Positions 5,432 through 57,777 of a stretch of 64,000 nt of DNA are shown piece by piece. The notes beneath the pieces are model-generated. The model was not told the origin of the DNA, ran no database searches, and saw only the letters and a list, made by a program, of their open reading frames with translations. This stretch comes from Minisyncoccota bacterium (GTDB taxonomy: Bacteria; Patescibacteriota; Minisyncoccia; Phycocordibacterales; UBA9973), in NCBI GenBank assembly GCA_036405895.1, contig DASWWS010000002.1, forward strand, positions 20,903 to 84,902, given 5' to 3'. The number at the start of each line of letters is the position of its first letter. The first letter of the stretch is position 1. Position numbers and translations under genes: made by a program.

Positions 5432-6208
5432 ATGATCACTACAGAACAAGTAAAGGAACTTCGCGACAAGACAGGTATCAGCGTTATGCAGTGCCGCAAA
5501 GCGCTTGAAGAAGCCGAAGGCGACATGGACAAGGCTGTTATCCTCCTTCAGAAGAAGGGTGCGGATATTGCTGCAAAGAAAGGCGACCGCGATGCTTCAG
5601 ACGGCACAGTAGTTGTACGCACTGACGGCAAGCGCGCGCTTACTCTTATCCTTAACTGCGAAACTGACTTCGTGGCAAAGAACGAAGACTTCGTAGCGCT
5701 TATTAACAAGCTCGCTGACGTAGCGTGGGAAAGTGGCATCGATGCTATGCGCGAAGCTGCACCGGCTCTCATCAGCGATGTAGTGCTCAAGATCGGGGAA
5801 AAGATCGAGCTTGGCCAAGTGGAAGAAATCTCAGGCGACGCTGTTGGCGCATACACTCACCACACCGGCAAAACTGCTGCTGTGGTAGTGCTCGCTGGCG
5901 GAACTCCTGATGTTGCAAAAGACATCGCAATGCATGTTACTGCAATGAAGCCTGCATTCCTCTCAGGAACTGAAATTTCTGAAGAGAACAAGGCAAACGT
6001 TATGGAAGTATTGAAAGCGGAAGTTGAAAATTCTGACAAGCCTGAAGAAATGAAAGCAAAAATCCTTGAAGGAAAGATCGCATCATTCTTCAAAGAGCAG
6101 ACCCTTCTCGACCAGCCATTCTTCAAGACTCCTGAAAAGACCATTGAACAGTTCGCAAAAGACAATGGAGCGACAGTCGAAAAGTTTGTGATCTATAACG
6201 TAGCATAA
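5432..6208 (+). CDS. tsf: elongation factor Ts
   Basis: MITTEQVKELRDKTGISVMQCRKALEEAEGDMDKA UBA-like N-terminus typical of EF-Ts; classical rpsB-tsf pairing. Confidence 0.9.
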   Translation: MITTEQVKELRDKTGISVMQCRKALEEAEGDMDKAVILLQKKGADIAAKKGDRDASDGTVVVRTDGKRALTLILNCETDFVAKNEDFVALINKLADVAWESGIDAMREAAPALISDVVLKIGEKIELGQVEEISGDAVGAYTHHTGKTAAVVVLAGGTPDVAKDIAMHVTAMKPAFLSGTEISEENKANVMEVLKAEVENSDKPEEMKAKILEGKIASFFKEQTLLDQPFFKTPEKTIEQFAKDNGATVEKFVIYNVA

Positions 6209-6221: not shown

Positions 6222-6608
6222 ATGGTTACAACACTCCTCATTGTTCTCGCTGTACTTATTGTCCTGTTCTGGCTCTCTGTCATGCTTCTGTGGTGGCACG
6301 AAAGCGAGGCGCGCGAACACGCAACCCTTGACCGCGTAGCCATGCGCCAAGTAGAGCGGGCTATCCGCCTGACGCGCCGCAGCTACTATGCAGGAGCGCT
6401 CTATACCCGCCGTGCATTCAATTGGGGAAATAAGAGCGTAGCCCGAGCCTTTGTTCACGTGTTCCCGAAAGCAGCCCCCCTATTCCAAAAGCATGATGTG
6501 CTGGCAGGCCTTGAAAGCGGCCCTTCCTCATACTTCCTTCACAGCATTTCACGCTCAAAGGAAGAGGGTGAAAAGCCGAAAATCCGCAGAAAGAAAATAG
6601 TTGCATAA
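6222..6608 (+). CDS. hypothetical membrane-anchored protein
   Basis: 128 aa, N-terminal TM helix (LLIVLAVLIVLFWLSVMLLWW), basic C-terminus; no recognisable family. Confidence 0.4.
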   Translation: MVTTLLIVLAVLIVLFWLSVMLLWWHESEAREHATLDRVAMRQVERAIRLTRRSYYAGALYTRRAFNWGNKSVARAFVHVFPKAAPLFQKHDVLAGLESGPSSYFLHSISRSKEEGEKPKIRRKKIVA

Positions 6609-6613
6609 AATCG

Positions 6614-6636
6614 TTTTTTCATTATAATGAAAAAAC
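6614..6636 (+). terminator. AT-rich hairpin (weak terminator candidate)
   Basis: gttttttcatt-ata-aatgaaaaaac perfect inverted repeat right after stop of 6222..6608. Confidence 0.25.
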
Positions 6637-6666
6637 TCGAGAGTTAATTTATTAACACTCGGGTAC

Positions 6667-6742
6667 GCCGCTTTAGCTCAGTTGGTAGAGCTACACTTTT
6701 GTAAAGTGAGGGTCGTCAGTTCGAGTCTGACAAGCGGCTCCA
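6667..6742 (+). tRNA. tRNA-Thr (anticodon TGT)
   Basis: hand-folded cloverleaf: acceptor GCCGCTT/AAGCGGC, D-stem GCTC/GAGC, anticodon loop TT-TGT-AA, 5-nt variable loop, T-arm GTCAG-TTCGAGT-CTGAC, encoded CCA; one A27-A43 mismatch. Confidence 0.85.
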
Positions 6743-6747
6743 ATAAT

Positions 6748-6778
6748 AAAAACCCCATTCCTAGGAATGGGGTTTTTA
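6748..6778 (+). terminator. rho-independent terminator after tRNA-Thr
   Basis: ccccattcc-tag-gaatgggg GC-rich hairpin flanked by A-run and T-run. Confidence 0.75.
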
Positions 6779-6862
6779 TTATTGGTCACCACATTTGTCA
6801 TCCTCTCGAACCGAAGACCTTGTTCCGAGGGTCTTTCGAGTCTGACTTCTAGCAACAACACT

Positions 6863-6881
6863 CAGAAGGACCGTCCTTCTG
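6863..6881. repeat. GGAC-N-GTCC hairpin repeat, arm type A (cagaaggac-c-gtccttctg)
   Basis: perfect 9+1+9 palindrome; identical copies at 43951, 44861, 57778. Confidence 0.85.
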
Positions 6882-6884
6882 AAC

Positions 6885-6909
6885 CTGAGCGGGGACGGTC
6901 CTTGCTAGG
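6885..6909. repeat. degenerate type B hairpin repeat (ctgagcggggacggtccttgctagg)
   Basis: right arm and core identical to type B (ggacggtccttgctagg); left arm mutated; sits 3 nt after type A copy as in the 43951-43996 pair. Confidence 0.6.
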
Positions 6910-6921
6910 TATTCTGCACGA

Positions 6922-8310
6922 CTATTTCACCTCCCCTATCAACACTTGGCACGAGCCGTGGTTTGCGATGGCGGTGAAGTTCACTTTTGGAGCAAGGGTA
7001 TCAAGAAGAAGTGCTGTCTCTGCGCCACAACTCCCTCCCGCCTGACACTGCAGTAAGTCGCATGAGTTGAAATAGAGGAAATCAATATCATTTTCATTAC
7101 TATCAAATGCAATAAGATATTTGGCAGTCGTTTCAAAAGAACCAATCAATCGGACTGGTGCAAACGCCGCAATTGAAGGGTGCGTGGAGAGCACGGTCGC
7201 ACCAGGATACTCTCTGAAGCTTTTGTAGTACTCCTCGAGGATTTTATTCTTACCAAAACCGATGTTTGCGTGGAGCATGAGGAAAAATCCCGCAACCGCA
7301 AGTATTGAAACCGCACTAACGAGGACGGTCCTCGTTAGTGTTTTGGTGCGAGAAAAGAGGGTGGCAATACCAAGACCTGCCAAGAGTGCCAGAGGGGCAA
7401 ATGCCGGCATAATATAGCGCGGTTCTTTATGCTCCTCCATGCTGAAATAAAGAAAGAATGACACTGCAACAAAAGCGAGTATTCCGATAACAATATTCTT
7501 TGTCTGCTCATTCTTTTTGTAAAAGAAAAACGGTATGAGAGAAAATATGACCAATGGTGCGCCCAATACTAGTACGCCGACATAAAACAATGCATGCTCC
7601 CTGTAGAGAAAGCTCACTTCGTGTGCAACCCGCGCGCCTTCAGTGATAGGCATCAGTGCCCCACCAAAGAGAAAGATATTGCTGATGAGGTATGTCGCGA
7701 GAATAAGGAGGGCCCCAAGCGAAAAATGCATTCCGCGTTTTATAACAACAGAAATATGCTTTGTTTCTATCCATGCCTGCACTGCAAGCGCGATGCCAAA
7801 GAGCGGGATTAACAATCCGTATGGAAAGCGAAGCAAGAGCATTACTGCCGTTACCACCCCTCCCCACACATACGCACGCTTAATAAAAAGAATATAAAAT
7901 ACTATGAAAAATCCGAGTACCCCAAATACTTCAGTGGTTGGAAGCGTGCTAAACGTATTAAACAGTGTGGCACTTGCAAGCACTACAGCTGCCCACCCGC
8001 CGGCAGTTGGCATATACTGCTCTCCTACTTTGTACGCCACATAGAGTGCACCAAAGGATGCAAAAATGGTGAGCCCTATTGCCCATGCAATGGGGATGCC
8101 GAACAATGCCCCAAATGAAAACAACAATGGCAGCAGTGGCGGGCGGTACACTTCCCAAAATCCTAAGCTTCCGAAACTTTCAATGTAGCGCCCCATGCCG
8201 ACATACACAGCGGCATCCCATGCAAACGCAGAGGGCCACAGTAGAAGGTACACAATGCGGCAAGCGAGAATGCCGAGCGCTATGACAAACAGCAGCCGCG
8301 ACAATTTCAT
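6922..8310 (-). CDS. GT39/ArnT-like (PMT_2 family) integral membrane glycosyltransferase
   Basis: 462 aa, about 11 predicted TM helices, N-terminal half resembles dolichyl-phosphate-mannose/undecaprenyl-sugar transferases; C-terminal soluble Cys-rich domain. Confidence 0.6.
   Translation of the reverse strand: MKLSRLLFVIALGILACRIVYLLLWPSAFAWDAAVYVGMGRYIESFGSLGFWEVYRPPLLPLLFSFGALFGIPIAWAIGLTIFASFGALYVAYKVGEQYMPTAGGWAAVVLASATLFNTFSTLPTTEVFGVLGFFIVFYILFIKRAYVWGGVVTAVMLLLRFPYGLLIPLFGIALAVQAWIETKHISVVIKRGMHFSLGALLILATYLISNIFLFGGALMPITEGARVAHEVSFLYREHALFYVGVLVLGAPLVIFSLIPFFFYKKNEQTKNIVIGILAFVAVSFFLYFSMEEHKEPRYIMPAFAPLALLAGLGIATLFSRTKTLTRTVLVSAVSILAVAGFFLMLHANIGFGKNKILEEYYKSFREYPGATVLSTHPSIAAFAPVRLIGSFETTAKYLIAFDSNENDIDFLYFNSCDLLQCQAGGSCGAETALLLDTLAPKVNFTAIANHGSCQVLIGEVK
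7314..7340. repeat. type C hairpin repeat (cactaacgaggac-g-gtcctcgttagtg) inserted in-frame inside the CDS 6922..8310
   Basis: perfect 13+1+13 palindrome; encodes ...TLTRTVLVS... in the host protein; same arm type as copy at 57745. Confidence 0.85.
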
Positions 8311-11609: not shown

Positions 11610-12992
11610 TTAATCGAAGTAATTGCGCAGTCGCTGAATGCGGTCGTTCTGGCGAAGCTTTTCGTGCACTTTTGCTTCGATCTGTCGGATGCGTTCGCGA
11701 GTAACACCAAATTCCTTCCCTACCTCTTCCAGCGTGTGCTGCACGCCATCGGTCAATCCGTAGCGCATCTCAAGAATTCTTTTCTCCTTTGGAGAGAGGT
11801 CTTCGAGGACTGCACGAATCGCATCGGTAAGCATGCGGCGAGAGGCTTCCTGGTCGGGGCGAAGGATTTTGTCGTCGGCAATAAATTCACCAAACGTACT
11901 CTTGTCTTCGTCGTCGCCAATCGGCTGCTCAAGCGAGCGGGTTTCTTGGTTGATCTGTTCGATAACATGCACCTTTTCAACTTCGATTCCCATTTCCATT
12001 GCCACTTCTTCAGGCATTGGGTCGCGTCCAAGGTCCTGTGCCAAACGGCGAAGGACTTGCTTGTACTTTGAAATGGTTTCCACCATGTGCACAGGAATAC
12101 GAATAGTGCGAGACTGGTCGGCAAGTGCGCGCGTAATAGACTGGCGAATCCACCATGTCGCATACGTTGAGAACTTGAATCCCTTAGTGTGGTCGAATTT
12201 CTCCACGGCCTTAAAGAGCCCAATGTTCCCTTCTTGAATCAGGTCCAAAAGAGTAAGGTCAGCAGTACGGTTTGCATACTTCTTTGCAATACTTACTACG
12301 AGTCGGAGGTTGGAACGTGCAAGAAGATTCTTTGCTTCGCCGTCGCCCGCTGCAATACGCTTTGCGAGCTCTTTCTCTTGTGCCGCATTAATCAGTGGGT
12401 ACTGCCCGATATCTTTGAGATACATCTGGACCGAGCTAAAGCTGTGCGAATCCTTTGCGTACTTTGAAAGGTCTTCGGTAGCGTCAACGTCAAGAAGGTT
12501 TCCGCCTTCCAATACGTCGATGCCTGCGCCGGAGAACTTTTCATACAATTCATCCAAAAATGAAATATTGTTTTCAATATCGGGGAATGTCTTTAAAATT
12601 TCGTCGTACGTGATAAAGCCACGCTTCTTCCCTTTCTGAATCAGCTCATCGCTCTTTACTTCCAATTCCTTCAATTTCTTTTCAGTATTGGTTTCTCGGC
12701 GAGGAGTGCTTCCTGGGTGGCGAATAGTAATTGGCCGCGGCTTTGCGCGTTCTGCTGTTGATTCTGTTTTCTTCACTACTGCTTTGGCAGGAGCTGCTTT
12801 CTTTACGACTTTCTTTGGTGCAACTGTTGCAGGTTTCTTTACTGCTTTCTTTGCGGGTGCCTTGGAGGGGACTTTCTTGACTGGTGCAGCTTTTTTTACT
12901 GCTACCTTCTTTTTTGCTGGCGCCGGAGCGCTTTTTTTGAGTGCCTTCTTTGGTTGTACTTTTGCCTTTGGGGCTGGTTTCTTATTTGGCAT
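11610..12992 (-). CDS. rpoD: RNA polymerase primary sigma factor (sigma70) with about 100 aa Lys/Ala/Pro-rich N-terminal tail
   Basis: regions 1.2-4 recognisable ([52 protein letters not shown]); classical dnaG-rpoD arrangement. Confidence 0.9.
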
Positions 12993-13041
12993 AAAATGAG
13001 TGCATAGCTATCATCAGGGAAATGGGGGTAAAAGTCAACTC

Positions 13042-14754
13042 TTACCCTCCCTGACGACGCTGGTTAATGGTTTGCAGCAGTGCGAGATATTTCAGTTCTG
13101 TTTCTTCATCCCCTGCTTGCTTGGCGGCTGCCATGTTCATCGAATAGTTGAATTTAAGCTCAGCGAGAAACTGCATAATGATTGTCTCGACAAGTTCTCT
13201 CGCAACCGCTGCTCGGTCTTCGGTTGAAAACGATTGGTACTGGCTTTCGATAAGGGCGAGAATACTGTCGCGGTTTTCGATAAGCGGCGGCACCGTAATC
13301 ACGCTTTCGTTAAAGACGAACGACTCGAGGGCTTTTTTACTTTCACTTGTTTCGGCGGGGTACAGCTCGCACAGTGCGGCAAAGCGCTCAAGGTGTGTTG
13401 CTGATACAGCCCGCGCAGTTGGTGCCGGAGCATTGGGGTGAACAGTGGCTTGCTCACGCACAAATGCATTGTAGTCTTCGTGCACCACGCTCACACCCAG
13501 GCTGCTTTCGCGTGCAATTGAGTCGAGGTAGCTTTGGCGCTCGATTGCCGAAGAGACCCGCAACAAAAATGGAAAGAGCTTTTCGCGAATCAAGAGCTTC
13601 AGCCCATGTGCAGTTGGTGAAGATGCTTGTATTGCATGAAGCGTGTGCAGTATGTAGTGCTCGCTTTCTTTCAAGCGCTCTTTCCATGCGTCTGCGCCCT
13701 CTTTGAGAATATAGTCGGCCGGGTCAACGCCTTGTGGAAGTGCGACCACCTTTGGGTTCATTCCTAATGTTAGGGCCACCAGCGCCGCTCGCGCAAGCGC
13801 TTTCTCCCCTGCCTGGTCTCCGTCAAATGCCAAAAACAAGTTGGGCGTGAGGCGTGAAAGAACGACAAGCTGTGCTCCCATATCGGTTGCAGACTGCTCG
13901 GATACTGCCGTACCGCTCGTTGCAACAGTGTTCTTGAATCCTGCTTGATGAGAGAGCACTAAGTCCATCTGCCCTTCTACCATGATGGCAAAATTGTGCT
14001 TGCGAATAGCCTGCTTTGCCTTGTCGAATCCGAACAATATGCGCGACTTTTGAAACACTTCCGTTTCTGGAGAGTTCAAATATTTGGGCCCCTCCGCCGC
14101 TGTTGAACCTTCTGGCGGAAAAATGCGGCCGGAAAATCCGACGATGCGCCCGCTTGAGTCCGAAAGCGGAAACATAATCCGCCCGCGAAAACGGTCGTAG
14201 TATCCCTTCTCTGTTTTTTTGGAAAGCCCAGCGCGCTCAAGGATTTGCCCGTCGCCGATCGATGCAGTGCCGCTTAAGTACCGCCACTCATTCGGCGCGT
14301 AGCCAATGCGGAATGCCGAAATAGTTTCTTCAGTGATGCCTCGAGCTTTGAGGTATTCGAGCGCTTCTGTGTTTTTAAGAAGCTCGCTTTCGTAGCGCAC
14401 GGACGCGTCATCAAGCGACTTGTAGATGCGGTCGGTCTCATCCACTTCGTCCGCCGTTTTAGAGGTGTATGCAGAAAGCACTATACCCGCCCTGTCGGCG
14501 AGTATTTTGAGTGCCCCTTTGAAGTCTACTCCTTCGAACTCTTGCACAAAGTTGACGATGTCTCCTTTTGCGCTGCATCCAAAGCAGTAGTATAGCCCTC
14601 GCTCCGGCGAGATTGAAAACGATGCGGTCTTTTCATTATGAAACGGACACTTCGCTTTAAATTGTGCTCCTGCCGGAATAAGTGTGATATAGGACGCGAG
14701 AACTTCTGCAATAGGCAACCGACTTTTTATTTGTTCGATCACCGAGTTGTTCAT
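13042..14754 (-). CDS. dnaG: DNA primase
   Basis: CHC2 zinc finger CPFHNEKTASFSISPERGLYYCFGCSAKGD, TOPRIM core (EGQMD, DGDQAG). Confidence 0.9.
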   Translation of the reverse strand: MNNSVIEQIKSRLPIAEVLASYITLIPAGAQFKAKCPFHNEKTASFSISPERGLYYCFGCSAKGDIVNFVQEFEGVDFKGALKILADRAGIVLSAYTSKTADEVDETDRIYKSLDDASVRYESELLKNTEALEYLKARGITEETISAFRIGYAPNEWRYLSGTASIGDGQILERAGLSKKTEKGYYDRFRGRIMFPLSDSSGRIVGFSGRIFPPEGSTAAEGPKYLNSPETEVFQKSRILFGFDKAKQAIRKHNFAIMVEGQMDLVLSHQAGFKNTVATSGTAVSEQSATDMGAQLVVLSRLTPNLFLAFDGDQAGEKALARAALVALTLGMNPKVVALPQGVDPADYILKEGADAWKERLKESEHYILHTLHAIQASSPTAHGLKLLIREKLFPFLLRVSSAIERQSYLDSIARESSLGVSVVHEDYNAFVREQATVHPNAPAPTARAVSATHLERFAALCELYPAETSESKKALESFVFNESVITVPPLIENRDSILALIESQYQSFSTEDRAAVARELVETIIMQFLAELKFNYSMNMAAAKQAGDEETELKYLALLQTINQRRQGG

Positions 14755-14760
14755 TGCGCT

Positions 14761-17700
14761 TTATTCTTCGATTGGCTTGTTATTGTTGATGTTGAGCGCA
14801 CTTCGGTTTGCACGGAAGCCGGTACCAGCTGGAATCAATCGTCCAACGGTCACGTTTTCTTTGAGTCCTCGAAGCGTATCCACTCCGCCCTTCACTGCGT
14901 TTGCGATCAATACGCGGTTGGTGTTTTGGAATGAAGCAGCTGAGATCCATGACTTTGCGTGAAGCGCAGTCTGCGTGATACCAAGGATGATAAGGTCACC
15001 CTTTGCTTCGCGAGCATCTGCTCCGCGCATGCGGTTGTTCTCTTCCATGAGTTCAGTCATTTCAACTGTTTCTCCTGGAGAGAATGATGAGTCTCCTGCT
15101 TCCTTAATCTTTCGGCGTGAGAACATTTGGCGCACGATGATTTCCAAGTGCTTGCGGGCAATAGATGCACCTTGGAGTTCGTACACCTTGTTGATTTCGC
15201 GGATGATGTAGTCTTCTGCCACGTCACGTCCAGCAAAGTCGTAGATATCGTCGATGTTTGCAGATCCGTCGGTAAGGAGTTCTCCCTTCACAACGTCCTG
15301 TCCAACTTTGACGATAGCGACACGGCGAGCTGACACAGTGTAGTCAACAGAATCCTTCTTCGCATCCCCTGACTTATCAGAGAGAACGGTGATGATTTTT
15401 TCACTGCCGTTTTCTTTGATTTCGGAAACAGTACCGGAGTACTTGTTCACCGCAGCCGGGTTTTTGATTGTTCGGCATTCGAACACTTCTTCAACACGAG
15501 GGAGACCCTGCGTGATGTCGATACCCGCCACACCGCCGGCGTGGAAGGTTCGCAGCGTTAGCTGCGTACCTGGTTCACCAATCGCCTGCGCTGCAACAAT
15601 ACCGACTGATTCGCCGATAGCAACGAGGTGGTTGCGTCCAAGGTCAAGACCGTAACACTGGCGGCAAATACCGTAGATAGTCTTACACACGCTTGGTGTG
15701 CGAACCGCTACTGCTTCAACGCCCTTTGCTTCGATCAATGCAACATCGTCCTTTCCAAGCAAGTGTCCGCGCTTGAAGAGTGTTGTTCCGTCAGGAGCAA
15801 CAACTTCTTTTGCAACGATACGTCCGCGGATGCTTTTCGCAAGAGGGATTTCAAATCCTGAAAGGATTTCTTTTGTCATAGTCTTGGAAGCTTTCGTTCC
15901 GCAGTCTTCTTCGGTGATCACCACGTCCTGAGCCACGTCAACCAATCGGCGTGTGAGGTATCCGGCACGAGCGGTGTTGAGTGCCGTGTCGGCAAGACCC
16001 TTACGAGAACCGTGAGTGGTAATGAAGTATTCAAGTGGTGAGAGACCTTCCTTGTAAGAAGTGATAATCGGGAAGTCGATAGTGCGACCGGTAGTGTTCT
16101 GAATGAACCCTTTCATACCCACCATCTGAGACACCTGCGCCATAGAACCGCGGGCACCAGAGGTTACAAGGTCGCTTGCTGAGCCGTGCTTTTCGAGTGT
16201 TGCAGGAAGGAGCTTTTCAAGTTCGCTCTTTGCTTTGTTCCAAAGAGTGATTGTCTTTTCGTAGAGCTCTTCTTTTGAAAGAAGCCCTTCTTCGTACTGC
16301 ATTTTGATTTCGTCATCGAGCTTGCGGTACTGCGCTACGAGAGCCGGCTTTTCTTTTGGTGCAACGACGTTATCAATACCCCAGGTAGTACCAGAGCGCG
16401 TAGCGTATTTGTACCCGAAAGATTTGATGCGGTCGAGAATCGGTGCGACTTCAGTCACGCCGTACTTTGCAATCAATTCGTCCATGATAGACCCCATTTT
16501 CTTGGTAGTCATTTCTTCGTTGATGTAGCCAAAGTCAGCAGGCAAGATTGCATTGAACATGAGTCGTCCGATAGTTGTTTCAAACGGCTTGTTGTCAAAT
16601 GCTGCGTACTTTTTGTTTGCCGTTCCAAGCACGTTGATGCGCGCGCGGAATGACACAATGTCAAAGTCGCCCGCAGTGATTGCTTCGTTAGGGCTGCCGA
16701 AGTATTTCCCTTCGCCCTTTGCACCTTCTACCAATGAGGTTGCCCAGAAGCAGCCGAGCACGATGTCGAGCTTGTTTACCGCAACGATTGGGTCACCGTT
16801 TTGTGGCTTGAGGATGTTCTTGTCGGCTGCAATAAGAGTGCGCGCTTCTTCCTGAGCAGTGTCAGAAAGCGGAAGGTATACACCCATCTGGTCACCGTCG
16901 AAGTCGGCGTTGAAAGCCGGACACACGAGCGGGTGCACCTGAATAGCGTTGCCTTCGATCAATACCGGCATGAACGCCTGAATACCGAGTCGGTGAAGCG
17001 TTGGCGCACGGTTCAAAAGAACGTGTTTGCCCTTAATCACCTCTTCGAGGATTGCCCATACTTCCGGAATGCGCTCTTCAATGAGCTTGTTTGCTCCGCG
17101 GATGTTGTATGCGAGTTCGCGTTCAATCACTTTAGAGATAACAAACGGACGGAAGAGTTCAAGCGCCATATGCTTTGGAAGTCCGCACTGGTTGAGGCGA
17201 AGCGTTGGCCCCACGACAATAACAGATCGAGCAGAGTAGTCTACGCGCTTACCAAGCAAGTTCTGGCGGAAGAGACCCTGTTTTGATTTAAGGTTGTCTG
17301 AAAGAGATTTCAGTGCACGGCGCTGAGCAGATGCCATAGCCGGTGCGTCTGATCCTGCAATAGAGTTGTCGATGAGTGCATCAACCGCTTCTTGCAAGAT
17401 ACGCTTTTCATTTCGGAGGATCACATCAGGCGCGCCGATTTCCTTCAATTTCTTGAGACGGTTGTTTCGGTTGATTACGCGGCGGTACAGGTCGTTGATG
17501 TCAGAAGTCGCATGACGACCTCCTTCAAGCGCAACCATTGGGCGAATAGCCGGAGGAATAACAGGAATCGCTTCGAGGAACATCCATTCAGGGCGAATGT
17601 TTGCGTAAATCATAGAGCGGATAAGCGCGAGACGCTTGTGGAGCTTTTCGCGTTCAGCAGCACCTGCTTTTTCAAGAAGTTTTTCAGTTGCTTCCTTGAG

Positions 17701-18387
17701 TTTTGGAAGGTCGATATCTTTAAAGAGTGCAAAGATTGCTTCAGCTCCAATGCCCGCTTCAAAAGCAGAACCGTACTTGAGTGAGTAGTGGTGGTATGCA
17801 AGTTCAGTAAGCACCTTACCAACGCGAAGTTCGGCAATTTCTTTCTTTGTGTTTGTCAGAAGTGTGCGAAGCTTTTCGCGAGTCTCTTCATCAGCCGCGC
17901 CTTTGAGCTTGTTTTTGAATTCAGCATCAAGGTCGGTGATAATGCGAGCGCGTTCTTCTTCGTGCATTACAGTCACGATATATCCTGCAAAGTACACTAC
18001 CTTTTCAAGGTCAGAGAGCGATACTCCAAGAAGTGTGGACATACGGCTTGGTACTCCGCGCAAGAACCAGATGTGCGCAACCGGGCTTGCAAGCTCGATG
18101 TGGCCCATGCGGTCGCGGCGAACAATAGACTGCGTTACTTCAACGCCACACTTTTCGCAGATAATCCCTGCGTAGCGAATGCGCTTGTATTTTCCACAGT
18201 AACATTCGTAATCCTTTTCAGGTCCGAAGATGCGCTCATCAAAGAGCCCGCCTCGTTCGCTTCGTCCGGTACGGTAGTTGATAGTTTCAGGCTTGGTAAC
18301 TTCGCCGAAAGACCATTCGCGAATGCGCTCTGGGCTTGCGAGCTTGAGAGAGATTTGATCAAAATTTGTTGTGTCGAGTGTTTTCAT
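14761..18387 (-). CDS. rpoC: DNA-directed RNA polymerase subunit beta'
   Basis: 1208 aa; zinc-binding CxxC..CxxC N-terminus, NADFDGDQM catalytic loop. Confidence 0.95.
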
Positions 18388-18406
18388 ATATGTGTGTGAG
18401 AGGATA

Positions 18407-21400
18407 TTACGCTTCTACTTCTTCGCTGTCTGCTTCGACTACGAGAGGTTTGCTTTGCACCAGTTCGACATCCAGTGACAATCCGCGGAGATAGTTCAAC
18501 ATCACAGAGAATGATGCAGGAACATTCGGTTCCCCGATCGGCTCGTTTTTGATAATAGAGTCGAATGTTGCGGCACGTCCGCGAATATCATCAGACTTGA
18601 TTGTGAGCATTTCGCGAAGGGTGTGCGATGCACCGTATCCTTCAAGCGCCCAGACCTCCATTTCACCAAAACGCTGACCTCCACCTTGTGCTTTACCACC
18701 AAGCGGCTGCTGCGTAATGAGAGAGTACGGCCCGATGGAACGCATGTGAATCTTGTCTTCCACCATGTGGTGAAGTTTCAAGATGTACATGTATCCGACA
18801 GCGATATCGCTTTCGAATTTGTCTCCTGTTCGTCCGTCAAAGAGTGGGATGCGTCCGTTCGATGGAAGTCCTGCTTTCACAAGTTCTTCCTTGATTTCAG
18901 CATCAGTTGCCCCCGCAAACGGAGGAACGATAGCCTGGTAGCCAAGCTCTGCAGCTGCCATACCCAAGTGAAGCTCAAGAATCTGTCCGAGGTTCATACG
19001 TGATGGCACACCAAGTGGTGTGAGTACTACGTCAACCGGTCGGCCGTCTGCCGTGTATGGCATGTCTTCTTCAGGAAGGATAACAGAGATAACACCCTTG
19101 TTACCGTGGCGACCCGCGAGCTTGTCACCCACTGAAATGTTTCGAAGCTGTGCAACTTCGATAACGATTTTTTTGATCACACCGCTTTCAAGCGTGTGTC
19201 CTTGGTCGCGTGAGAATACCTTAACGCGAATAATGCGTCCGCGCTTGCCGTGATCCATCTTCAAAGATGTGTCTTTCACGTCGCGCGCCTTTTCAGCAAA
19301 GATTGAGCGAAGGAGGCGCTCTTCAGGAGTAAGCTCAGTTTCACCCTTTGGAGTGATTTTACCCACCAAGATGTCGCCTTCCTTTACTTCAGCACCGACG
19401 CGGATAATACCGTCTTCGTCGAGGTCTTTAAGGCGTCCTTCACCAACGTTCGGGATATCGCGAGTAGTGATTTCGGGCCCAAGCTTTGTGTCGCGCACCA
19501 CTGAAACGAATTCAGCAATGTACATAGAGGTGAACTTTGAATCTTTCACGAGTCGCTCTGAAAGAATGATCGCGTCTTCGAAGTTTGCACCGTTCCATGA
19601 CATAAACGCTACCATCATGTTGTGTCCGAGTGAGATTTGTCCGCGGTCAGTAGTAGAAGTGTCGGCCAAGAGGTCGCCCTTCTTTACTTTCGCTCCAGGA
19701 GAAACAACCGGGCGCTGGTGGAATGCACCGAAGTTGTTGTTGCGCTGGAAAGAGACAAGGTTGTAAGTGTGGTCTTTGTTCTTTTCGTTTCGGATTACCA
19801 CTTTAGACGCGTCTACTGCAATCACTTCGCCCGCTTCTTCAGCGATAACGAGGCGGCCTGAGTACGGAGCAGCGCTTTCTTCAACACCGGTCGCAACAAA
19901 TGGTGCTTCTGGGCGGATAAGCGGCACTGCCTGCTTCTGCATGTTTGATCCCATCAATGCGCGGTTCGCATCGTTGTGTTCAAGAAACGGCACCATAGAA
20001 GTCGCAAGAGAGAATGCCTGGTTAGGCGCAACATCAATGAAGTTTACTTCTTTCTTTGCAACAATCCCTGGGCTTCGGTGAATGCGAGCTTCAACGCGCT
20101 CTTCAAGGTTGCCCTTGTCATCGTATTTGTTTCCAGCATGAGCAATGATGCACTTTTCTTCTTCAGCAGCATTGAGATATGCAATTTCTCCAGTGATCTT
20201 GCCGTCTTTCACGCGAACATACGGAGTTTCGATAATACCAAACTCGTTAACGCGAGCGTAGATAGCCAAGCGAAGGATCAAACCGATGTTCGGACCTTCA
20301 GGAGTGTGGATAGGACACACGCGGCCGTAGTGAGAAGGGTGCACGTCGCGCACTTCAAGCGTTGCGCGTTCTCGTGAGAGACCGCCGGGCCCAAGCGCCG
20401 AAAGAGTACGCAGCTCTTCAAGTTCTGAGAGCACGTTTTCCTGGAGCATGAACTGCGAGAGCTGGTTGGTCGTAAAGAATTCCTTGATACGAGCCTGAAG
20501 CGGGCGCTGGTTTACCACCTGGATAGGGAGCGCGTTTGCAGAGTCGATAGTACTCATGCGGTCCTGCACGTTTCGCTTGATCTGAGTAAGACCAACGAAG
20601 ATTTTCTGCTGGAGCATTTCGCCCACAAAGCGAACTCGGCGGGAAGCAAGGTCATCAATATCGTCAGCATGACTTCCTGGTGTGGTGTTCAATTTTACGA
20701 TGTGGTCGATGATGTGGCAGATGTCAGACGCTGAAAGGGTCTTTCTCTCCATTTCTTTTGCACTTGAATCAAGTTCAAAGCGGTTGTTGAATCGGAAGCG
20801 GCCCACAGAAGAAAGGTCGTAGCGCTCTTCAGAGAAGAGGTTGTTGACGAATTCTCGTGCGTTGTCTGCAGTTGCCAAGTCACCGTCGCGGAGCTTACGG
20901 TAGATTTCAACCAATGCTTCATCAGTTGTCTTTGCAGGATCTTTTTCCAAAGAGTGCTCGATCATTTTCAAAGACGCTTCGTTTTTGAAGTGCTTTTTGA
21001 TTTCAGCATCTTCGTTGAGGCCCATTGCGCGCAACAGTGAAGTGATCGGGAACTTTCGCTTCTTGTCGATACGCACGTACACGGTGCCGTCTGGGTCGCT
21101 TTCGATTTCAATCCATACGCCGCGGTTTGGGATGATTTTTGCACCGAAAAAGCGCTTGCCTTTTACTTCAAGCTCAGTGAAAAATACACCAGAAGAACGA
21201 GAGAGCTGCGGAATGATAGAACGTTCAACACCGTTGATGATGAATGTTCCGTGGCCGGTCATCACTGGGATGTCCGCCATAAAAATTTCCTGCTCCTTGT
21301 CGGTGCCGGTTTGTTTGTTGGTGAGGCGAACGCGAGCCTTCAGCTGTGTTTCAAGCGAGAGCTTGTTCTCCTTTGCATAGTGTTCGTCGAACTTTGGTTC

Positions 21401-21622
21401 AACGAGGTGGAATGAGACGAAGTCCAATTGGAACTTCTTTGTAGAGTAGTCGAGGATCGGGGTGAATTCTTTAAAAACATCCTTCAACCCTTTTTCAATC
21501 AACATATTGAACGAGTCAATCTGATGCTGAATCAGGTTAGGAAATGGTGCAAGTGGTTCTTTGTATTTCGAAAAGTACTTTTTCGGCCGCGCTCCCGCTA
21601 CAGCCTGTTTTGTTTTACTCAT
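18407..21622 (-). CDS. rpoB: DNA-directed RNA polymerase subunit beta
   Basis: 1071 aa; conserved beta-subunit blocks throughout (e.g. GRHGNKGV, rifampicin-cluster region). Confidence 0.95.
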
Positions 21623-27112: not shown

Positions 27113-27523
27113 CTATCGCGGGCACAGCAGGCGTTGCCATTCCTCGGGTGAAATGCCCGGCCGTCTGATGCGCCGAGAGGAGTACACAGGGTATGAGCTT
27201 CTTGTTACAGCCCTCCTTGAAACAGTTGCTGTCCGGGGGCGATTTCTGCTTTGTTCAAGCAATAGCGCAAGCGAGTCGCGCTCCATATAAAGCCGCGTCA
27301 CTTCTGCTCGAGCATAGGCAAGCGCTTCTTTAAGCTCCTCAACTTCCCTATTTCGATTTTTGGGAATGGTGATTTCAACAAGCGGCTTTTTTATCTTTGC
27401 CACCGTCGGCTCCGAAAGCTCTCGCTTGCGAACGCCCCAGTACCATACTCCCCATACAATTACTGCTGCTAGTGCGAGCAGTGCAATAAACTTCAAAAAT
27501 CCTTTTGCTGATCCGTTTGCCAT
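27113..27523 (-). CDS. hypothetical membrane-anchored coiled-coil protein
   Basis: 136 aa; TM near N-terminus, Arg-rich C-terminus; no family assignment. Confidence 0.4.
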   Translation of the reverse strand: MANGSAKGFLKFIALLALAAVIVWGVWYWGVRKRELSEPTVAKIKKPLVEITIPKNRNREVEELKEALAYARAEVTRLYMERDSLALLLEQSRNRPRTATVSRRAVTRSSYPVYSSRRIRRPGISPEEWQRLLCPR

Positions 27524-27760
27524 ATTCAGTTGTATTAAGTGAACGATTGCTTCTTGGCGGTATAATGCCGATATCTATCCCCGAAGTCAATAAAAATAGT
27601 CGTACCACCACTTGGGTGATACGACCGGTTTTCTCTCGCCTGTCGGCAAGAAAAATGGGCAGATTAGCTTTTTTCTGATGCGAGCTGTCTCATAGCGTAT
27701 TTCCCTCAGTGTACTCCTCTGTCACTAAAGTGCAAATAAAAAAAATAAACTAGATATGTC

Positions 27761-28282
27761 TTACATTGACGGCAGACCAAGACGATTTAATGTAATTCCT
27801 TCAAATTCATAATCGCACTCAACTTCTTTAATATAAGCGAGTACGTCTTTATATGCGGGAGCTTGGAACCATTCACTTAGGATATAAATATATTCAACTT
27901 GAACACCGAGTGCATTTAAAAGTTTTTCATACTGTCGTTTCTTAAAATGACAAGTTTGTAATTTCTCATCTACTGATCCAGCAACATTCTGGAACTTAAT
28001 TTCAATCACAAAAAATGTATTTGTATTTAATACTAAAATAGCATCATCAGGAAGAAGTTTTTTGGAGAGAATTTCCCTATGATTTATACCTTTTCTTTCA
28101 AGAAATTTATATAAGGTGTTTTTTCGAAGATTAAGAGCAACTACTTCTCCATTAAATAAAATAGAGCCATCATCCTTAACCTCATAACCCGGCATCGTCT
28201 TAAGAACAGTAAGAAAATCAACCCTACCTTCAAAATGCATTCCAGATTTTGTATTTCCGCCCCCAACACCACCAAGCTTCAT
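27761..28282 (-). CDS. short PD-(D/E)xK nuclease, likely N-terminally truncated DpnII/MboI-family (GATC) restriction endonuclease
   Basis: 173 aa; LPDDAILVLNTNTFFVIEIKFQNVAGSVDEKL resembles DpnII catalytic block FDFVIKNEQGELYLIEVNFYSGSGSKLNE (recalled from memory); N-terminus GGVGGGNTKSG resembles DpnII mid-region DTNGRKNRTG; full-length family members are about 280-290 aa. Confidence 0.5.
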   Translation of the reverse strand: MKLGGVGGGNTKSGMHFEGRVDFLTVLKTMPGYEVKDDGSILFNGEVVALNLRKNTLYKFLERKGINHREILSKKLLPDDAILVLNTNTFFVIEIKFQNVAGSVDEKLQTCHFKKRQYEKLLNALGVQVEYIYILSEWFQAPAYKDVLAYIKEVECDYEFEGITLNRLGLPSM

Positions 28283-28361: not shown

Positions 28362-29210
28362 ATGTTTATGAAAGTGACGAGAAAAGTAAAGCCATTTCTT
28401 AAATGGGTTGGGGGCAAGGGCCAATTACTGGAGCAATTCGAAAATATTTATCCAAAGAAATTCAATACATATTACGAACCTTTTATTGGTGGGGGTGCTG
28501 TTTTCTTTTCTATTAACCCTAAGAAGGGTGTTATTAATGACATTAATCAAACTCTAGTTAATACATACAAGAATATTAAAAATCAGCCCGAAAAGTTAAT
28601 CAGGTCCCTTAAAAAAATTGAGAAAGATTTTATAGCTAAAAATGAGGATGATCGTAAGGAGTATTATTATTTAATTCGAGATAAATATAATCGGCTTTCT
28701 TCTGAAGATTTCAACCGTAGCGTCTACTTTCTATTTTTAAATAAGACAGCCTTTAATGGTGTGTACCGAGAAAATTCAAAAGGAGGTTTTAACGTGCCGA
28801 TAGGCAGCTATAAAAATCCTAAAATTGTTGATGAAGAAAATATATTAGCAATCTCAAACACATTAAAGAATACGAAAATTACGTGCTCCTCTTTTGTTGA
28901 TGCGGTAAAAAATGCAAAGTCAGGAGATTTTGTATATTTTGATCCCCCCTATTACCCCTTATCTAAAACTTCGCAATTCACTAGCTATAGTAAAGATTCA
29001 TTTTCAGAAGAAGATCAAATTAAACTTCGCGATCTATTTGTTCAGTTAGATAAAAAAGGTGTTTACGTGATGCTCAGTAATTCAAGCGCCTCTTTTATAA
29101 AGAAAATCTATGCTGGATATACCCAAATCCCTGTATATGCTAATCGCATGATTAATTCAAAGTCAGATAGGCGAGGAAAGATATCAGAAGTAGTTATTAT
29201 TAATTATTAA
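28362..29210 (+). CDS. Dam-family (alpha-class) N6-adenine DNA methyltransferase, probable GATC specificity (DpnM/M.MboIA-like)
   Basis: KPFLKWVGGKGQLL, EPFIGGGAVFF (motif I), NGVYRENSKGGFNVPIGSY, FVYFDPPYYPL (motif IV), FTSYSKDSF - near-diagnostic Dam signature. Confidence 0.9.
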   Translation: MFMKVTRKVKPFLKWVGGKGQLLEQFENIYPKKFNTYYEPFIGGGAVFFSINPKKGVINDINQTLVNTYKNIKNQPEKLIRSLKKIEKDFIAKNEDDRKEYYYLIRDKYNRLSSEDFNRSVYFLFLNKTAFNGVYRENSKGGFNVPIGSYKNPKIVDEENILAISNTLKNTKITCSSFVDAVKNAKSGDFVYFDPPYYPLSKTSQFTSYSKDSFSEEDQIKLRDLFVQLDKKGVYVMLSNSSASFIKKIYAGYTQIPVYANRMINSKSDRRGKISEVVIINY

Positions 29211-30021
29211 GTTTTATAAGATCTTCAAAACGTTTTCGAGAAAGTTCTAGATATTTTTTCTCCATATCAATACCAATAAATTTCCTTCCATGTTTTTTTG
29301 CAGCAATCCCAGTTGTTGAGCTTCCTGTAAAAGGGTCAAGAACAACGTCCCCCTTATTTGTACTTGCTAATATAATCCTCTCTAAAAGAGATAATGGTTT
29401 TTGAGTTGGGTGTTTGGTAAATTTTTTTTCTTCTTTTTTAGGAGGATGAACTGCCCATACTGAACGCATTTGAAGATTAGGTTTTTTAATAAAATCTTCA
29501 GACCATTCGCCATTTTTCATCAAATCATAATTGAATATATGTTTTGCTTTTTTATCTTTGCGAGCCCATAAAATAGTTTCATGACTTGCAGTAAAAAACC
29601 TACAACTAAGATTAGGTGCTGCATTTGGTTTAAACCAAGATATGTCATTAAGCATATGAAATCCAATTGACTGGATAGCATGCCCACATTGATAAATAGA
29701 ATGATACGTACCACTAACCCAAATGGTGCCATGCGGCTTAAGAACACGATGGCATGCATTGAGCCATTTTTCGTGGAAGGCATAATCGCTGGCAAAACCC
29801 TTACTCTTATCCCATTCCCCCTTATTAACACTCACCATCTTTCCTGCATGGACTGTAAAACCATTATTTGAAAGCATATATGGAGGGTCAGCAAAAATCA
29901 TATCAATTGAATCTTCAGGGAGTGAATTCAAAAGTTCTACGCAGTCACTCAGGTAAAGAACGAAGTCTTTACCTGAGTAATGTGGCTTATTTTTAACATT
30001 TCTAAGTATTCTCTCAGGCAT
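29200..30021 (-). CDS. beta-class N6-adenine (or N4-cytosine) DNA methyltransferase, DpnA/M.MboIC-like second methylase
   Basis: IFADPPYM (motif IV) near N-terminus then VLDPFTGSSTTGIAA (motif I) near C-terminus = beta permutation; long collinear similarity to DpnA as recalled (KHPTQKP..LERIILAST). Confidence 0.85.
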   Translation of the reverse strand: MPERILRNVKNKPHYSGKDFVLYLSDCVELLNSLPEDSIDMIFADPPYMLSNNGFTVHAGKMVSVNKGEWDKSKGFASDYAFHEKWLNACHRVLKPHGTIWVSGTYHSIYQCGHAIQSIGFHMLNDISWFKPNAAPNLSCRFFTASHETILWARKDKKAKHIFNYDLMKNGEWSEDFIKKPNLQMRSVWAVHPPKKEEKKFTKHPTQKPLSLLERIILASTNKGDVVLDPFTGSSTTGIAAKKHGRKFIGIDMEKKYLELSRKRFEDLIKLNN

Positions 30022-30166
30022 TACGTATAGTTTAACTTATTAAAATGAACTTAACATAAAAAATTGTTAAATTATATATAAATTACCCATAAGATCCACA
30101 ATTTATACTAACCCGCACAGGACACAAAAGCCTCTTTAAGTAGAAGTTTTTGTTATAATAATAGAA

Positions 30167-31348
30167 GTGATTAGACTATTAAAAAACGATGACAAGCTTA
30201 TTTTAAGTTACTCTACAGATAATCCATGGTTTCGTGACCGACTACGAAATGGACAAGATATTTCTCTTAAAAAGAGAGCATTTATCCTATCAAAAAATGA
30301 TATTTCTAAACAAGATATTGATGATGATGGCGCTGATGTAGAATTTATTCTTGGAAATTTAATTGAGGGTCAATATTTTAAAATTGAAGGTAGAAAACTA
30401 GGGATTAATCAGGATGTGTACATAGACAAAAATGTAGAAATAACAGAAAGTTTCTTTCTTGGAGTAAGAGACATCCCCATATTTCAAAAAATTAGTAGGG
30501 TAGTAAATGAAGACATTTATATTGGAGGTAAACTAGAGGAGTCTATACCCCTGGAGGAATTTGAACAGTTACTTAAGAATTTTCCAAATTCCTATGAAAT
30601 TGCAAAATATCTGGACGCTCGTCTCGCTTCTGTATTAAGTAACTATTTCGATTCTTCATCAAATGTAGAAGCGAAATATCAGCGCTACATGAACAAAAAA
30701 CAAAGTATCAAAGGCGAGGATTTACCTGAACTTTTTAAAGAGAGAGAAATAGTCAAGTACGAAACAATTCTCGAAAAACTCGAACTGATGCTTTTAAATC
30801 AAAATAAATATAACGAAAAACAGTGGCAGAAAGAAATACTCGAAATAATTCTACTTTTGTATCCTAAATATATTTACGCATTTGAAGAAGCCCCTATTCG
30901 GGATCAGTATCAAAGTAAGGATAGAAAGATTGATTTCCTACTCATTGATGCTAACGGAAACACGGACATTATTGAAATCAAGCGACCATTAAACGAAAGG
31001 ATTATCACAAAAGGACGGTATCGTGATAATTACATACCACTAAGAGAGTTATCTGGAACAGTGATGCAGATTGAAAAGTATATATATCATCTTAATAAAT
31101 CTGGGCAGACTGGCGAGAATAGATTGACCACGAAGTATAAGAGTAAGCTACCTGCTGATTTCAAAATAAAGATTACCAATCCTGGTGGAATGATTATCAT
31201 GGGAAGAGACAATCTTCTTTCTCGTGATCAAATGGAAGATTTTGAAGTGGTAAAGAGAAAATACAAAAATGTAATTGATATCATTACCTATGACGATCTC
31301 ATAAGAAGACTGAAATCTATTATTACAGCTTGGAAAAATAGAGCTTAA
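30167..31348 (+). CDS. Shedu-like defense nuclease (DUF4263 PD-(D/E)xK domain at C-terminus), GTG start
   Basis: 393 aa; C-terminal block KIDFLLIDANGNTDIIEIKRP (D...ExK) followed by VMQIEKYIYHL (Q..Y) as in DUF4263/SduA; N-terminal about 230 aa unassigned. Confidence 0.6.
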   Translation: MIRLLKNDDKLILSYSTDNPWFRDRLRNGQDISLKKRAFILSKNDISKQDIDDDGADVEFILGNLIEGQYFKIEGRKLGINQDVYIDKNVEITESFFLGVRDIPIFQKISRVVNEDIYIGGKLEESIPLEEFEQLLKNFPNSYEIAKYLDARLASVLSNYFDSSSNVEAKYQRYMNKKQSIKGEDLPELFKEREIVKYETILEKLELMLLNQNKYNEKQWQKEILEIILLLYPKYIYAFEEAPIRDQYQSKDRKIDFLLIDANGNTDIIEIKRPLNERIITKGRYRDNYIPLRELSGTVMQIEKYIYHLNKSGQTGENRLTTKYKSKLPADFKIKITNPGGMIIMGRDNLLSRDQMEDFEVVKRKYKNVIDIITYDDLIRRLKSIITAWKNRA

Positions 31349-31353
31349 ACTTA

Positions 31354-43893: not shown

Positions 43894-43950
43894 ATAGCCT
43901 ATTGTAGTAAAAAGCCCCTCAGAATACTAGCAATCCCCCCTAAAAGAATT

Positions 43951-43969
43951 CAGAAGGACCGTCCTTCTG
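43951..43969. repeat. type A GGAC-N-GTCC hairpin repeat
   Basis: cagaaggaccgtccttctg, identical to 6863 copy. Confidence 0.85.
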
Positions 43970-43971
43970 AA

Positions 43972-43996
43972 CCTAGCAATGACCGTCCTTGCTAGG
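43972..43996. repeat. type B hairpin repeat (cctagcaatgaccgtccttgctagg), one arm mismatch; contains stop codon of 43992..44807
   Basis: 12+1+12 palindrome with single T/C mismatch; TAG stop (43992-43994 rc) lies in right arm. Confidence 0.8.
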
Positions 43997-44833: not shown

Positions 44834-44857
44834 CCTAGCAAGGACGGTCCTTACTAG
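44834..44857. repeat. type B hairpin repeat (cctagcaaggacggtccttactag), right arm 1 mismatch
   Basis: in 5' leader of MutY-like gene. Confidence 0.75.
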
Positions 44858-44860
44858 TTT

Positions 44861-44879
44861 CAGAAGGACCGTCCTTCTG
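44861..44879. repeat. type A hairpin repeat
   Basis: cagaaggaccgtccttctg. Confidence 0.85.
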
Positions 44880-44934
44880 AGAATTTCCGAGAAAAGAGTT
44901 TAGTGTTCGGTGTACGGTGTACACCGTGGGATAC

Positions 44935-44970
44935 AAAAAACCGCCCCTCTATTTAAGGGGGCGGTTTTTT
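44935..44970. terminator. bidirectional rho-independent terminator
   Basis: aaaaaa-ccgcccctctatttaagggggcgg-tttttt. Confidence 0.75.
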
Positions 44971-44980
44971 GTATCAGTAC

Positions 44981-57658: not shown

Positions 57659-57661
57659 TAC

Positions 57662-57694: not shown

Positions 57695-57711
57695 ATTTAG
57701 CGTTGCAAAAG

Positions 57712-57740: not shown

Positions 57741-57744
57741 TACC

Positions 57745-57775: not shown

Positions 57776-57777
57776 TT

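Follow-up and report, generated by a model that had tools for sequence, protein, structure and literature searches.

A 64,000-nucleotide stretch of a Minisyncoccota bacterium genome (contig DASWWS010000002.1 of GenBank assembly GCA_036405895.1, positions 20,903 to 84,902 of the forward strand; hereafter the window, with coordinates counted from its first letter) carries eleven copies of a short palindrome, grouped at six loci. We propose that these copies are very probably repetitive extragenic palindromic sequences (REPs), often arranged as inverted doublets (REPINs), and that they belong to a mobile hairpin family spread by a Y1 transposase that resembles the REP-associated tyrosine transposases (RAYTs) and represents a clade found in bacteria belonging to the candidate phyla radiation (CPR). 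The elements, 21-41 nt in length, appear from their sequences to be non-autonomous, and the family appears to be spread over CPR bacteria of the Paceibacteria/Parcubacteria type. CPR/Patescibacteria genomes are described as streamlined and repeat-poor, and to our knowledge REP-RAYT systems have been studied almost entirely in Proteobacteria. REP-transposase systems are of a known kind; their presence in the CPR group and the form with a conserved core at the hairpin apex have not yet been described.

Conserved core and covarying arms of the repeat

The core sequence GGACNGTCC occurs exactly ten times in the window, compared with 0.41 +/- 0.65 occurrences expected from 100 dinucleotide-preserving shuffles (maximum 3 in any shuffle). 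An eleventh copy, with its core at 43980, has one mismatch (TGACCGTCC) and intact arms. An earlier note on this DNA had listed the eleven copies at six loci, and all of its positions were right to within a base or two. The same note gave the core as GGAC-N-GTCC; the repeat is real, but the centre base is C or G in all window copies, the conserved unit is in fact 11 nt (AGGACSGTCCT, with the flanking A...T present in 10 of the 11 copies), and one copy has a mismatched core.

The copies fall into types according to their arms. Type A (tcagaa/ttctga) is found in four copies, all perfect; type B (cctagcaa/ttgctagg) in five copies, two of them perfect; and type C (cctaacga/tcgttagg) in two copies, both perfect. 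Types B and C differ at three paired positions, with both sides changed each time in a compensatory manner, and have the outer arms accttaccta...taggtaa in common. These three types had been recognized in the earlier note, which overlooked a fourth, type D (left arm cctgagcgg), present in copy 2 and intact in a close relative (contig L138). The palindromes span 21-41 nt and form 9-17-bp stems with a 3-nt CSG loop, as RNA or as DNA, and their fold z-scores against shuffled sequences range from -4.3 to -12.9. Stop codons are absent from every reading frame of the core, the frames being KD(G/R)P, RTVL and (Q/K)G(P/R)S. Each copy holds exactly one CGTC, carried by either of its strands (GGAC-CGTC-C or G-GACG-GTCC), which would explain why only C or G is found at the centre. 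Three of the four doublets in the window alternate in the centre base. An Rfam scan at the gathering score returned tRNA-Thr only, relaxed scans returned only sub-threshold matches to generic hairpins, and a literature search for the core sequence found primers and unrelated sequences only. Thus, what had been called a new family is indeed absent from Rfam and the searchable literature, but very likely belongs to the known REP-type systems.

Outside the window, a collection of representative genomes (which excludes the source genome) was scanned with the type-A sequence, and three loci were found. The meaningful one is in a Minisyncoccia metagenome-assembled genome (MAG) that has one type-A and one type-C copy; the other two (L001 and L003) are chance matches in high-GC sequence. 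Metagenome contigs were then scanned with an arm-independent pattern of two AGGACSGTCCT cores 8-38 nt apart, and at least 120 loci were found, with dozens of different arm sequences around one core, on contigs whose GC content ranges from 29% to above 60%. The matches at L042:3200-3450, L095:3900-4150 and L101:220-275 (GC 66-72%) were rejected as chance matches in 42-nt coding tandem repeats (PQSYGQQGRSS...). Another locus, L034:4955-5012 and 5607-5630, is a 12-nt tandem repeat (GGACCGTCCTTA) whose cores overlap one another's arms. These four loci were left out of the statistics. In L123:6326-6440, three near-identical palindromes of 23-27 nt follow one another with an exact 45-nt period.

Among 284 distinct copies, arm positions 6-10 from the centre were complementary in 51-78% of copies, compared with 30-42% for shuffled sequences, and all four Watson-Crick pair types were found at each of these positions. 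The sole weak consensus in the arms was taCCAA. For the metagenome loci listed, the centre base was C or G in 277 of the 284 distinct copies; the scan pattern forces this base, like the flanking A...T, in the matched pairs, and only the extra copies test them. Adjacent copies had opposite centre bases in 86 doublets and the same centre base in 39 (P = 3e-5). In the opposite-centre doublets the two units are mutual reverse complements, which is the arrangement of REPINs and of bacterial interspersed mosaic elements (BIMEs), and some doublets pair between the units instead of within them (L023, L030, L057 and L073, for example). Taken together, the covariation of the arms bears out the earlier proposal that a hairpin, rather than a linear site, has been selected, and the copies with complementary arms on which that proposal depended outside the window do exist.

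A Y1 transposase gene bracketed by the hairpins

The open reading frames (ORFs) of all metagenome loci were clustered all-against-all without prior expectation. The most recurrent family encodes a protein of 210-240 amino acids, found in 13 loci with a partial copy in a fourteenth. The protein scores 26.7-56.1 bits against Pfam Y1_Tnp ('Transposase IS200 like', PF01797; cut-off 23); of the NCBIfam models, that of the REP-associated tyrosine transposase (NF047646, REP_Tyr_transpos; 34-67 bits) matches it best. The HUH motif (N84-H85-x-H87) and Y145-x-x-x-N149 are invariant in sets of 12 and of 30 sequences, the tyrosine motif being Y-x-x-x-N-P. An AlphaFold model of the transposase (pLDDT 79.8, pTM 0.83) gave as its top Foldseek match the E. 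coli RAYT bound to a REP hairpin (4er8_A, E = 2.4e-4), followed by the IS608, IS200 and ISDra2 TnpA proteins. Judged by their sequences, the transposases are a divergent clade and not an equivalog of NF047646.

Core hairpins bracket the transposase gene at 11 of the 13 loci, lying 6-78 nt upstream of the start codon (usually as a doublet, at 24-78 nt) and at or within 54 nt of the stop codon. The remaining two genes have different hairpins at their flanks, and the orientation of the hairpins relative to the gene is inconsistent. A Y1 gene, which the earlier note suggested looking for elsewhere in the genome, is thus found in related contigs, bracketed by the same hairpins. A more canonical RAYT (Y1_Tnp 56 bits) is encoded at L006:8980-9900, on a contig that also has GGACSGTCC copies, and the repeat flanking this gene is a different one (actaacggggacaggcacaattattatcgactttctgtgcc); two REP systems may coexist in that genome. 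The RAYT of L025 is also flanked by a different hairpin.

Because the loci described above had been chosen via a DNA motif, six homologues were fetched by protein sequence alone. At E <= 1e-10, a profile search with the transposase returned no fewer than 6,063 clusters. Leaving aside generic '[bacterium]' labels and a single conflicting NCBI label, the homologues that carry names are Paceibacterota, Kaiserbacteria, Parcubacteria, Minisyncoccia or Patescibacteria. All six homologues have hairpins at the same three sites: upstream of the gene, in frame at about +170 to +230, and at the stop codon. The core is exact in three of them (Minisyncoccia GCA_049997855.1, Paceibacterota GCA_035510635.1 and one JGI contig), where the copies lie about 40 nt upstream, about 180 nt into the gene and over the stop codon; it has one mismatch in another (GGACCGACC), and two mismatches in the two Kaiserbacteria-like homologues (GGTCGGTTC). 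The layout is thus the same in all six, and the core co-diverges with the enzyme.

The in-frame internal REP is found in most transposase genes of the clade, some 175-200 nt into the coding sequence, and is translated as K-Y-Q-G-(P/R)-S, with the glycine invariant in 30 homologues. Such internal copies lie at L096:1425-1439, L113:930-944, L115:676-686, L128:10178-10192, L130:10172-10186, L136:10170-10188 and L049:71-109. Within each genome the arms of the internal copy match those of the flanking copies, and in L132, L134 and L135 the core of the internal copy changes jointly with the flanking cores. The internal REP suggests some form of self-regulation or self-recognition of the transposase.

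In four CPR genomes (L128, L130, L132 and L136) the gene order is recA-ftsK-large protein-RAYT-(beta-lactamase-like, CSD)-rplJ-rplL. As far as gene order can tell, this shared neighbourhood, which is unusual for a transposase, suggests domestication and vertical inheritance of the transposase, not spread in the manner of an insertion sequence. The window ORFs at 27113-28282, which had been guessed to be rplL/rplJ and hence the syntenic RAYT site, are neither, and the neighbourhood lies outside the window. The REP load varies widely among the lineages that have the system; the window has 11 copies in 64 kb without the gene.

Copies in the window, their turnover and alternative explanations

Comparison with relatives showed that orthologous sites are polymorphic for the repeats. 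In contig L137, exactly the 63-nt segment at the site of copies 1 and 2 is absent and both flanks align (the gene end on one side; the spacer, terminator and tRNA on the other), within the same gene order as in the window (DsbA, glycosyltransferase, 223-residue gene, membrane protein with 54% identity, terminator, tRNA-Thr). In contig L138, whose Nth protein is 89% identical, one type-C copy occupies the position of the A+B pair (copies 6 and 7) of the window, and the nth-htrA spacer contains one type-D copy in place of the B+A pair (copies 4 and 5). A third relative, L139 (79% identity), has no copies in 20.8 kb, the nth-htrA spacer included. At the first of these L138 sites, the B-like copy at 44834-44858 of the window corresponds to a type-C copy at L138:9950-9974, both between the terminator and a conserved TTTTTGTGATACAGTACC upstream of nth; this difference at the same position indicates that the element was converted or replaced in place and not simply gained or lost.

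In the metagenome loci, doublets have also entered coding sequences in frame. Upon alignment with homologues, the doublets in UvrB are clean in-frame insertions of 14-16 amino acids and that in GyrB is a clean insertion of 12 amino acids; UvrC likewise has doublet insertions relative to its homologues, and LepA, compared with its EF-Tu paralogues, has an additional segment in which a doublet lies. The doublet alignments are less clean for LigA and RarA, and the doublets of ArgRS, PheT (PheRS-beta) and PurH are in frame as seen from their own sequences alone. With the polymorphic orthologous sites, the inverted doublets and the bracketed RAYT-like gene in relatives, the behaviour that the earlier note had likened to REPs or miniature inverted-repeat transposable elements (MITEs) is well supported.

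Five of the six loci are intergenic, although about 93% of the window is coding (P = 1e-5). At the first locus, copy 1 (6862-6882) is a perfect 21-nt palindrome of type A (tcagaaGGACCGTCCttctga) with C at the centre, and lies between the terminator of tRNA-Thr on one side and the 3' end of a convergent 462-residue gene on the other. This terminator (6744-6776, plus strand) is a canonical intrinsic one outside the REP family, and similar ones are at 44929-44975 and 57711-57740. Copy 2 (6884-6909), which ends 13 nt from the stop codon at 6922, has a left arm of type D, the core GGACGGTCC and a right arm of type B (ttgctagg). By its sequence, copy 2 is a chimera of D and B joined at the core rather than a decayed B; it is the single such case in the window and may record exchange or cleavage at the apex. 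Copy 3 (7314-7340), a perfect 27-nt palindrome of type C, is intragenic: it lies in frame within the ORF of the 462-residue membrane protein (6922-8310, minus strand) and is translated as ...TLTRTVLVS....

The nth-htrA spacer holds copy 4 (43949-43971), a perfect 23-nt palindrome of type A, and copy 5 (43972-43996), of type B with the mutated core, whose right arm provides the nth/mutY-like gene on the minus strand with its TAG stop (43992-43994). Copy 6 (44834-44858), of type B with two mismatches in its right arm (ttactagt), is found downstream of a canonical terminator and 26 nt upstream of the ATG of nth (44807); together with copy 7 (44860-44880), a perfect 21-nt palindrome of type A, it makes up an inverted (G/C) doublet. 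Copies 8-10 lie between two convergent peptidase genes, abutting both stops, on either side of a canonical bidirectional terminator. Of these, copy 8 (57660-57696) is of type B with extended arms (accttacctagcaa...) and begins 2 nt past the TAA stop of the S13 peptidase gene; copy 9 (57742-57778) is of type C with the same extended arms (accttacctaacga...) and directly follows the terminator at 57711-57740; and copy 10 (57778-57798), a perfect type-A palindrome, abuts the stop (57799-57801) of the convergent M23 peptidase gene. Finally, copy 11 (63647-63677), a perfect 31-nt palindrome of type B, is squeezed in between the stop of the gene upstream (63678-63680) and GGGAGG, the ribosome-binding site of the minus-strand SQS_PSY gene. 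The idea that the centre base tracks the direction of neighbouring transcripts fits loci 1 and 5, and was rejected as it fails at loci 3 and 6.

The window has a GC content of 47%, and its gene content fits a CPR bacterium (short rpoB, then rpoC, dnaG and rpoD). The 462-residue protein and the Nth/MutY-like protein are 100% identical to proteins annotated as 'MAG TPA ... [Candidatus Paceibacterota bacterium]'. The HtrA-like protein had no exact match on record, and a look-up of the 462-residue protein returned only short Logan contigs of the same population. The order rpoB (only 1071 residues)-rpoC-dnaG-rpoD, at 11610-21622 on the minus strand, is an uncommon clustering of transcription and primase genes. 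The SQS_PSY gene (squalene/phytoene synthase family, 62726-63628, E = 2.6e-71) is somewhat unexpected given the reduced metabolism of CPR bacteria, and is set apart from its upstream gene by a REP. A HIP1-type cyanobacterial origin, which this gene had raised, was rejected: the window has zero GCGATCGC sites, and its proteins are those annotated as Candidatus Paceibacterota. An apparent defence island at 28362-35098 comprises a D12-class adenine methyltransferase (28362-29210), an N6/N4 methyltransferase (29200-30021), a Shedu SduA-like protein (30167-31348) and a Gabija-like pair of a UvrD-like helicase (31354-33285) and an OLD-family ATPase-TOPRIM protein (33269-35098). In L138, the region adjoining GroEL carries a DUF4268 gene in place of the defence island.

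Could the hairpins be primarily RNA elements, that is, terminators or 3'-end stabilisers against exonucleases, kept by selection site by site and not transposed? Most copies lie directly past stop codons, which they abut, as the earlier note observed, or overlap (43992, 57656, 57799 and 63678); two loci are flanked by genes that converge on them; folded as RNA, the hairpins are very stable; a terminator scan, which covered 6500-7500 only, gave one weak match at a REP (copy 1, minus strand); and published REPs have such secondary roles (PMC3733652). However, when the sequence is read directly, a clear T-run is missing behind every copy except copy 6, which has a short one on the minus strand (tail GUGCUUUUUU), and canonical terminators with a stem and a T-tract stand right beside the repeats at three loci. 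Copy 11 sits in the gap between a stop codon and a ribosome-binding site, where a terminator would silence the downstream gene if the two genes are co-transcribed, and copies 6 and 7 have a terminator on one side and the next start codon on the other. Termination is not the primary explanation, because T tracts are mostly absent, true terminators are adjacent, and copies occupy these stop/ribosome-binding-site and pre-start positions. Furthermore, an RNA element would leave unexplained the copies in frame within genes, the dispersed identical arms, the bracketing of the transposase gene and the replacement of one type by another at orthologous sites, and none of the copies matches an Rfam family. 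We therefore consider a primary RNA function improbable, and the terminator or stabiliser role suggested in the earlier note at most a secondary one.

A duplex site of 9-11 bp to which a dimeric protein binds (a regulator, nucleoid protein or restriction-modification enzyme, for instance) is a still weaker candidate and in our view very unlikely. The core is a perfect dyad conserved over contigs of widely different GC content, every copy contains GGWCC once, some copies, those upstream of nth and htrA, are close to promoters, and two DNA methyltransferases are encoded in the window. Yet a fixed dimer site needs no self-complementary variable flanks, and the flanks are self-complementary; copies within essential genes and past stop codons would make poor operators; restriction sites show the opposite of over-representation; and the link with the Y1 transposase would have no explanation. 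The least probable of the readings, to which we give hardly any credence, is that the core serves natural transformation as a signal for the uptake of DNA. CPR bacteria probably depend on taking up DNA and encode competence machinery, and a short clade-conserved motif that is enriched past genes and in hairpins recalls the inverted pairs of the Neisseria DNA uptake sequence (DUS). Against this, the motif is sparse (about 1 per 6 kb here, with no copies across 20 kb in L139 and L137), DUS pairs have a conserved stem and a variable loop where the present repeats have a conserved apex and variable stems, and the bracketing of the transposase gene is again unexplained.

A mobile REP family spread by a RAYT-like transposase is thus the preferred explanation, and the following observations weigh against it. 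No conserved motif, recurrent tetranucleotide or information content outside the arms was found at the hairpin foot, whereas Quentin et al. (PMC6006769) define a REP by a GTAG/GTGG tetranucleotide 5' of the hairpin foot; in lacking this tag the CPR repeats differ from the REP/REPIN-RAYT systems of Proteobacteria. The transposases miss the NF047646 equivalog cut-off of 80, searching the PDB by sequence, whether with the transposase profile or with one sequence, gave no significant match, and the fold similarity to 4er8 is moderate (TM-score 0.43/0.56). The link between the clade and the hairpins is drawn from layout, motifs and a predicted fold, rather than from biochemistry. By tblastn, as in the earlier note, there is no Y1 transposase in the 64-kb window, and the window copies may be orphan REPs. 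Within about 20 kb, L128, L130 and L136 have no cores other than the ones at the transposase gene; the presence of the gene is thus no guarantee of dispersal. Copy 3 was rejected as an example of a clean insertion, the alignment being ambiguous with unrelated residues of similar length in the homologues (48-54% identity). Finally, taxonomic identity was checked in a minority of the metagenome loci, and a few high-GC loci among them are unrelated coding repeats.

Proposed mechanism and comparison with known systems

We propose that the element, in single-stranded form and probably exposed at replication forks, folds into a hairpin with AGGAC-S-GTCCT at its apex. The hairpin would be recognized by a RAYT-like Y1 HUH transposase whose gene lies elsewhere in the genome between hairpins of this kind, and this transposase may persist in the source genome. 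The enzyme would cut and rejoin the single-stranded DNA via a phosphotyrosine intermediate, so that copies may be inserted, excised or replaced. Binding and cutting of a folded single strand are proposed because this is the established chemistry of HUH Y1 enzymes (IS608 TnpA and E. coli TnpA-REP); by analogy, catalysis on the present hairpins would follow the same course. The C or G at the centre would supply one CGTC per copy, which may serve as the determinant of polarity or cleavage. Copies would survive at sites where they do little harm, such as those just past a stop codon, in the gap between two convergent genes or next to a terminator, and in frame within tolerant protein loops. The D/B chimera, like the swaps of type seen at orthologous sites, would be in keeping with an exchange at the core.

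A more far-reaching possibility, to which we give a rather low probability, combines these elements into an ancient, vertically inherited REP-transposase partnership specific to CPR bacteria of the Paceibacteria/Parcubacteria type that works unlike the classic one. The enzyme would read and cut the symmetrical apex of the hairpin at the embedded CGTC, rather than a tagged foot. Either strand would then be usable and half-elements could be swapped, with the chimera at 6884-6909 and the type swaps as possible traces. The gene of the enzyme would need an in-frame REP about 180 nt into its coding sequence, co-evolving with the flanking copies, and the elements would routinely colonise essential genes of streamlined genomes. 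Such a system would supply the missing transposase for REPs of the CGTC type.

The conservation of an 11-nt core across a class-level radiation would make these repeats an unusually clean case for the co-evolution of a domesticated transposase with its hairpin, and the transposase described here is a candidate enzyme for CGTC-containing palindromic repeats, which previously had none. The elements add peptides (RTVL, QGPS/QGRS and KDGP/KDRP) to UvrB, GyrB and UvrC, and are in frame in LigA and tRNA synthetases. The motif is a marker for Paceibacteria contigs, and the copies that overlap stop codons are a possible source of annotation artefacts.

Within the limited literature collection searched, no paper linking RAYTs or REPs with CPR bacteria was found. 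The closest known systems are described in Proteobacteria, where E. coli has REPs and BIMEs with TnpA-REP (4ER8) and Pseudomonas has REPINs. Like these, the CPR repeats are short hairpins, mostly extragenic and near 3' ends, and often form inverted doublets; published REPs are also placed beside 3' ends, supply stops, and are intragenic in repair genes (PMC3733652). The layout of a RAYT gene flanked by REPs, known as a REPtron (PMC5581495, PMC3733652), has its counterpart in the repeat-flanked Y1 HUH gene, which appears to be vertically inherited in conserved synteny, with repeats and transposase co-diverging. On the other hand, the CPR repeats conserve an 11-nt core at the apex and are near-perfect palindromes, and the two strands give almost the same hairpin. 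While REPs are usually species-specific (PMC6006769), the CPR core is conserved over a class-level radiation. The CPR transposase is longer (210-240 amino acids, with a C-terminal extension) and about 14% identical to the E. coli RAYT, and most of the CPR homologues examined have an in-frame REP inside the transposase coding sequence.

The CGTC-tagged REPs of Di Nocera et al. (2013, PMC3733652), to which Rickettsia RPE-4/RPE-6 and Neisseria dRS3 belong, also have a CGTC/GACG in each copy. Their dimers likewise dominate, and they have intragenic in-frame copies, notably in DNA repair and replication genes. In those repeats the tag is the unpaired 5' end, followed by an 8-9-bp stem with a 4-5-nt loop and a CCA tail, whereas the CPR repeats have CGTC at the apex; and the CGTC-tagged REPs have no associated transposase, whereas the CPR repeats bracket a Y1 gene. 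The TIRYT or 'TIRtron' systems (PMC3733652), in which tyrosine transposases are flanked by moderately repeated non-GTAG inverted repeats, some of them self-complementary, share with the CPR system a Y1 gene and dispersed non-GTAG repeats occurring as singles, dimers and clusters. Unlike their long, lineage-specific terminal inverted repeats, the CPR repeats are short single hairpins with one core over many genera, and the GGGGWSAS motif of TIRYTs is absent from the CPR system.

The Rickettsia palindromic elements (RPE-1 and relatives) are comparable as selfish palindromes that lie in frame within genes, essential ones included, of reduced genomes. RPE-1 elements are 100-150 bp and have no known transposase, whereas the CPR elements measure 21-41 nt, or about 45-55 nt when paired in doublets, and do have a candidate one. 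With the IS200/IS605 elements, whose TnpA acts with subterminal hairpins, the CPR transposase shares the superfamily and the fold, and the IS200/IS605 enzyme recognises hairpins in single-stranded DNA. Unlike those insertion sequences, the CPR transposase gene appears to be single-copy and syntenic, without a tnpB, and the unit that has multiplied is the hairpin alone.

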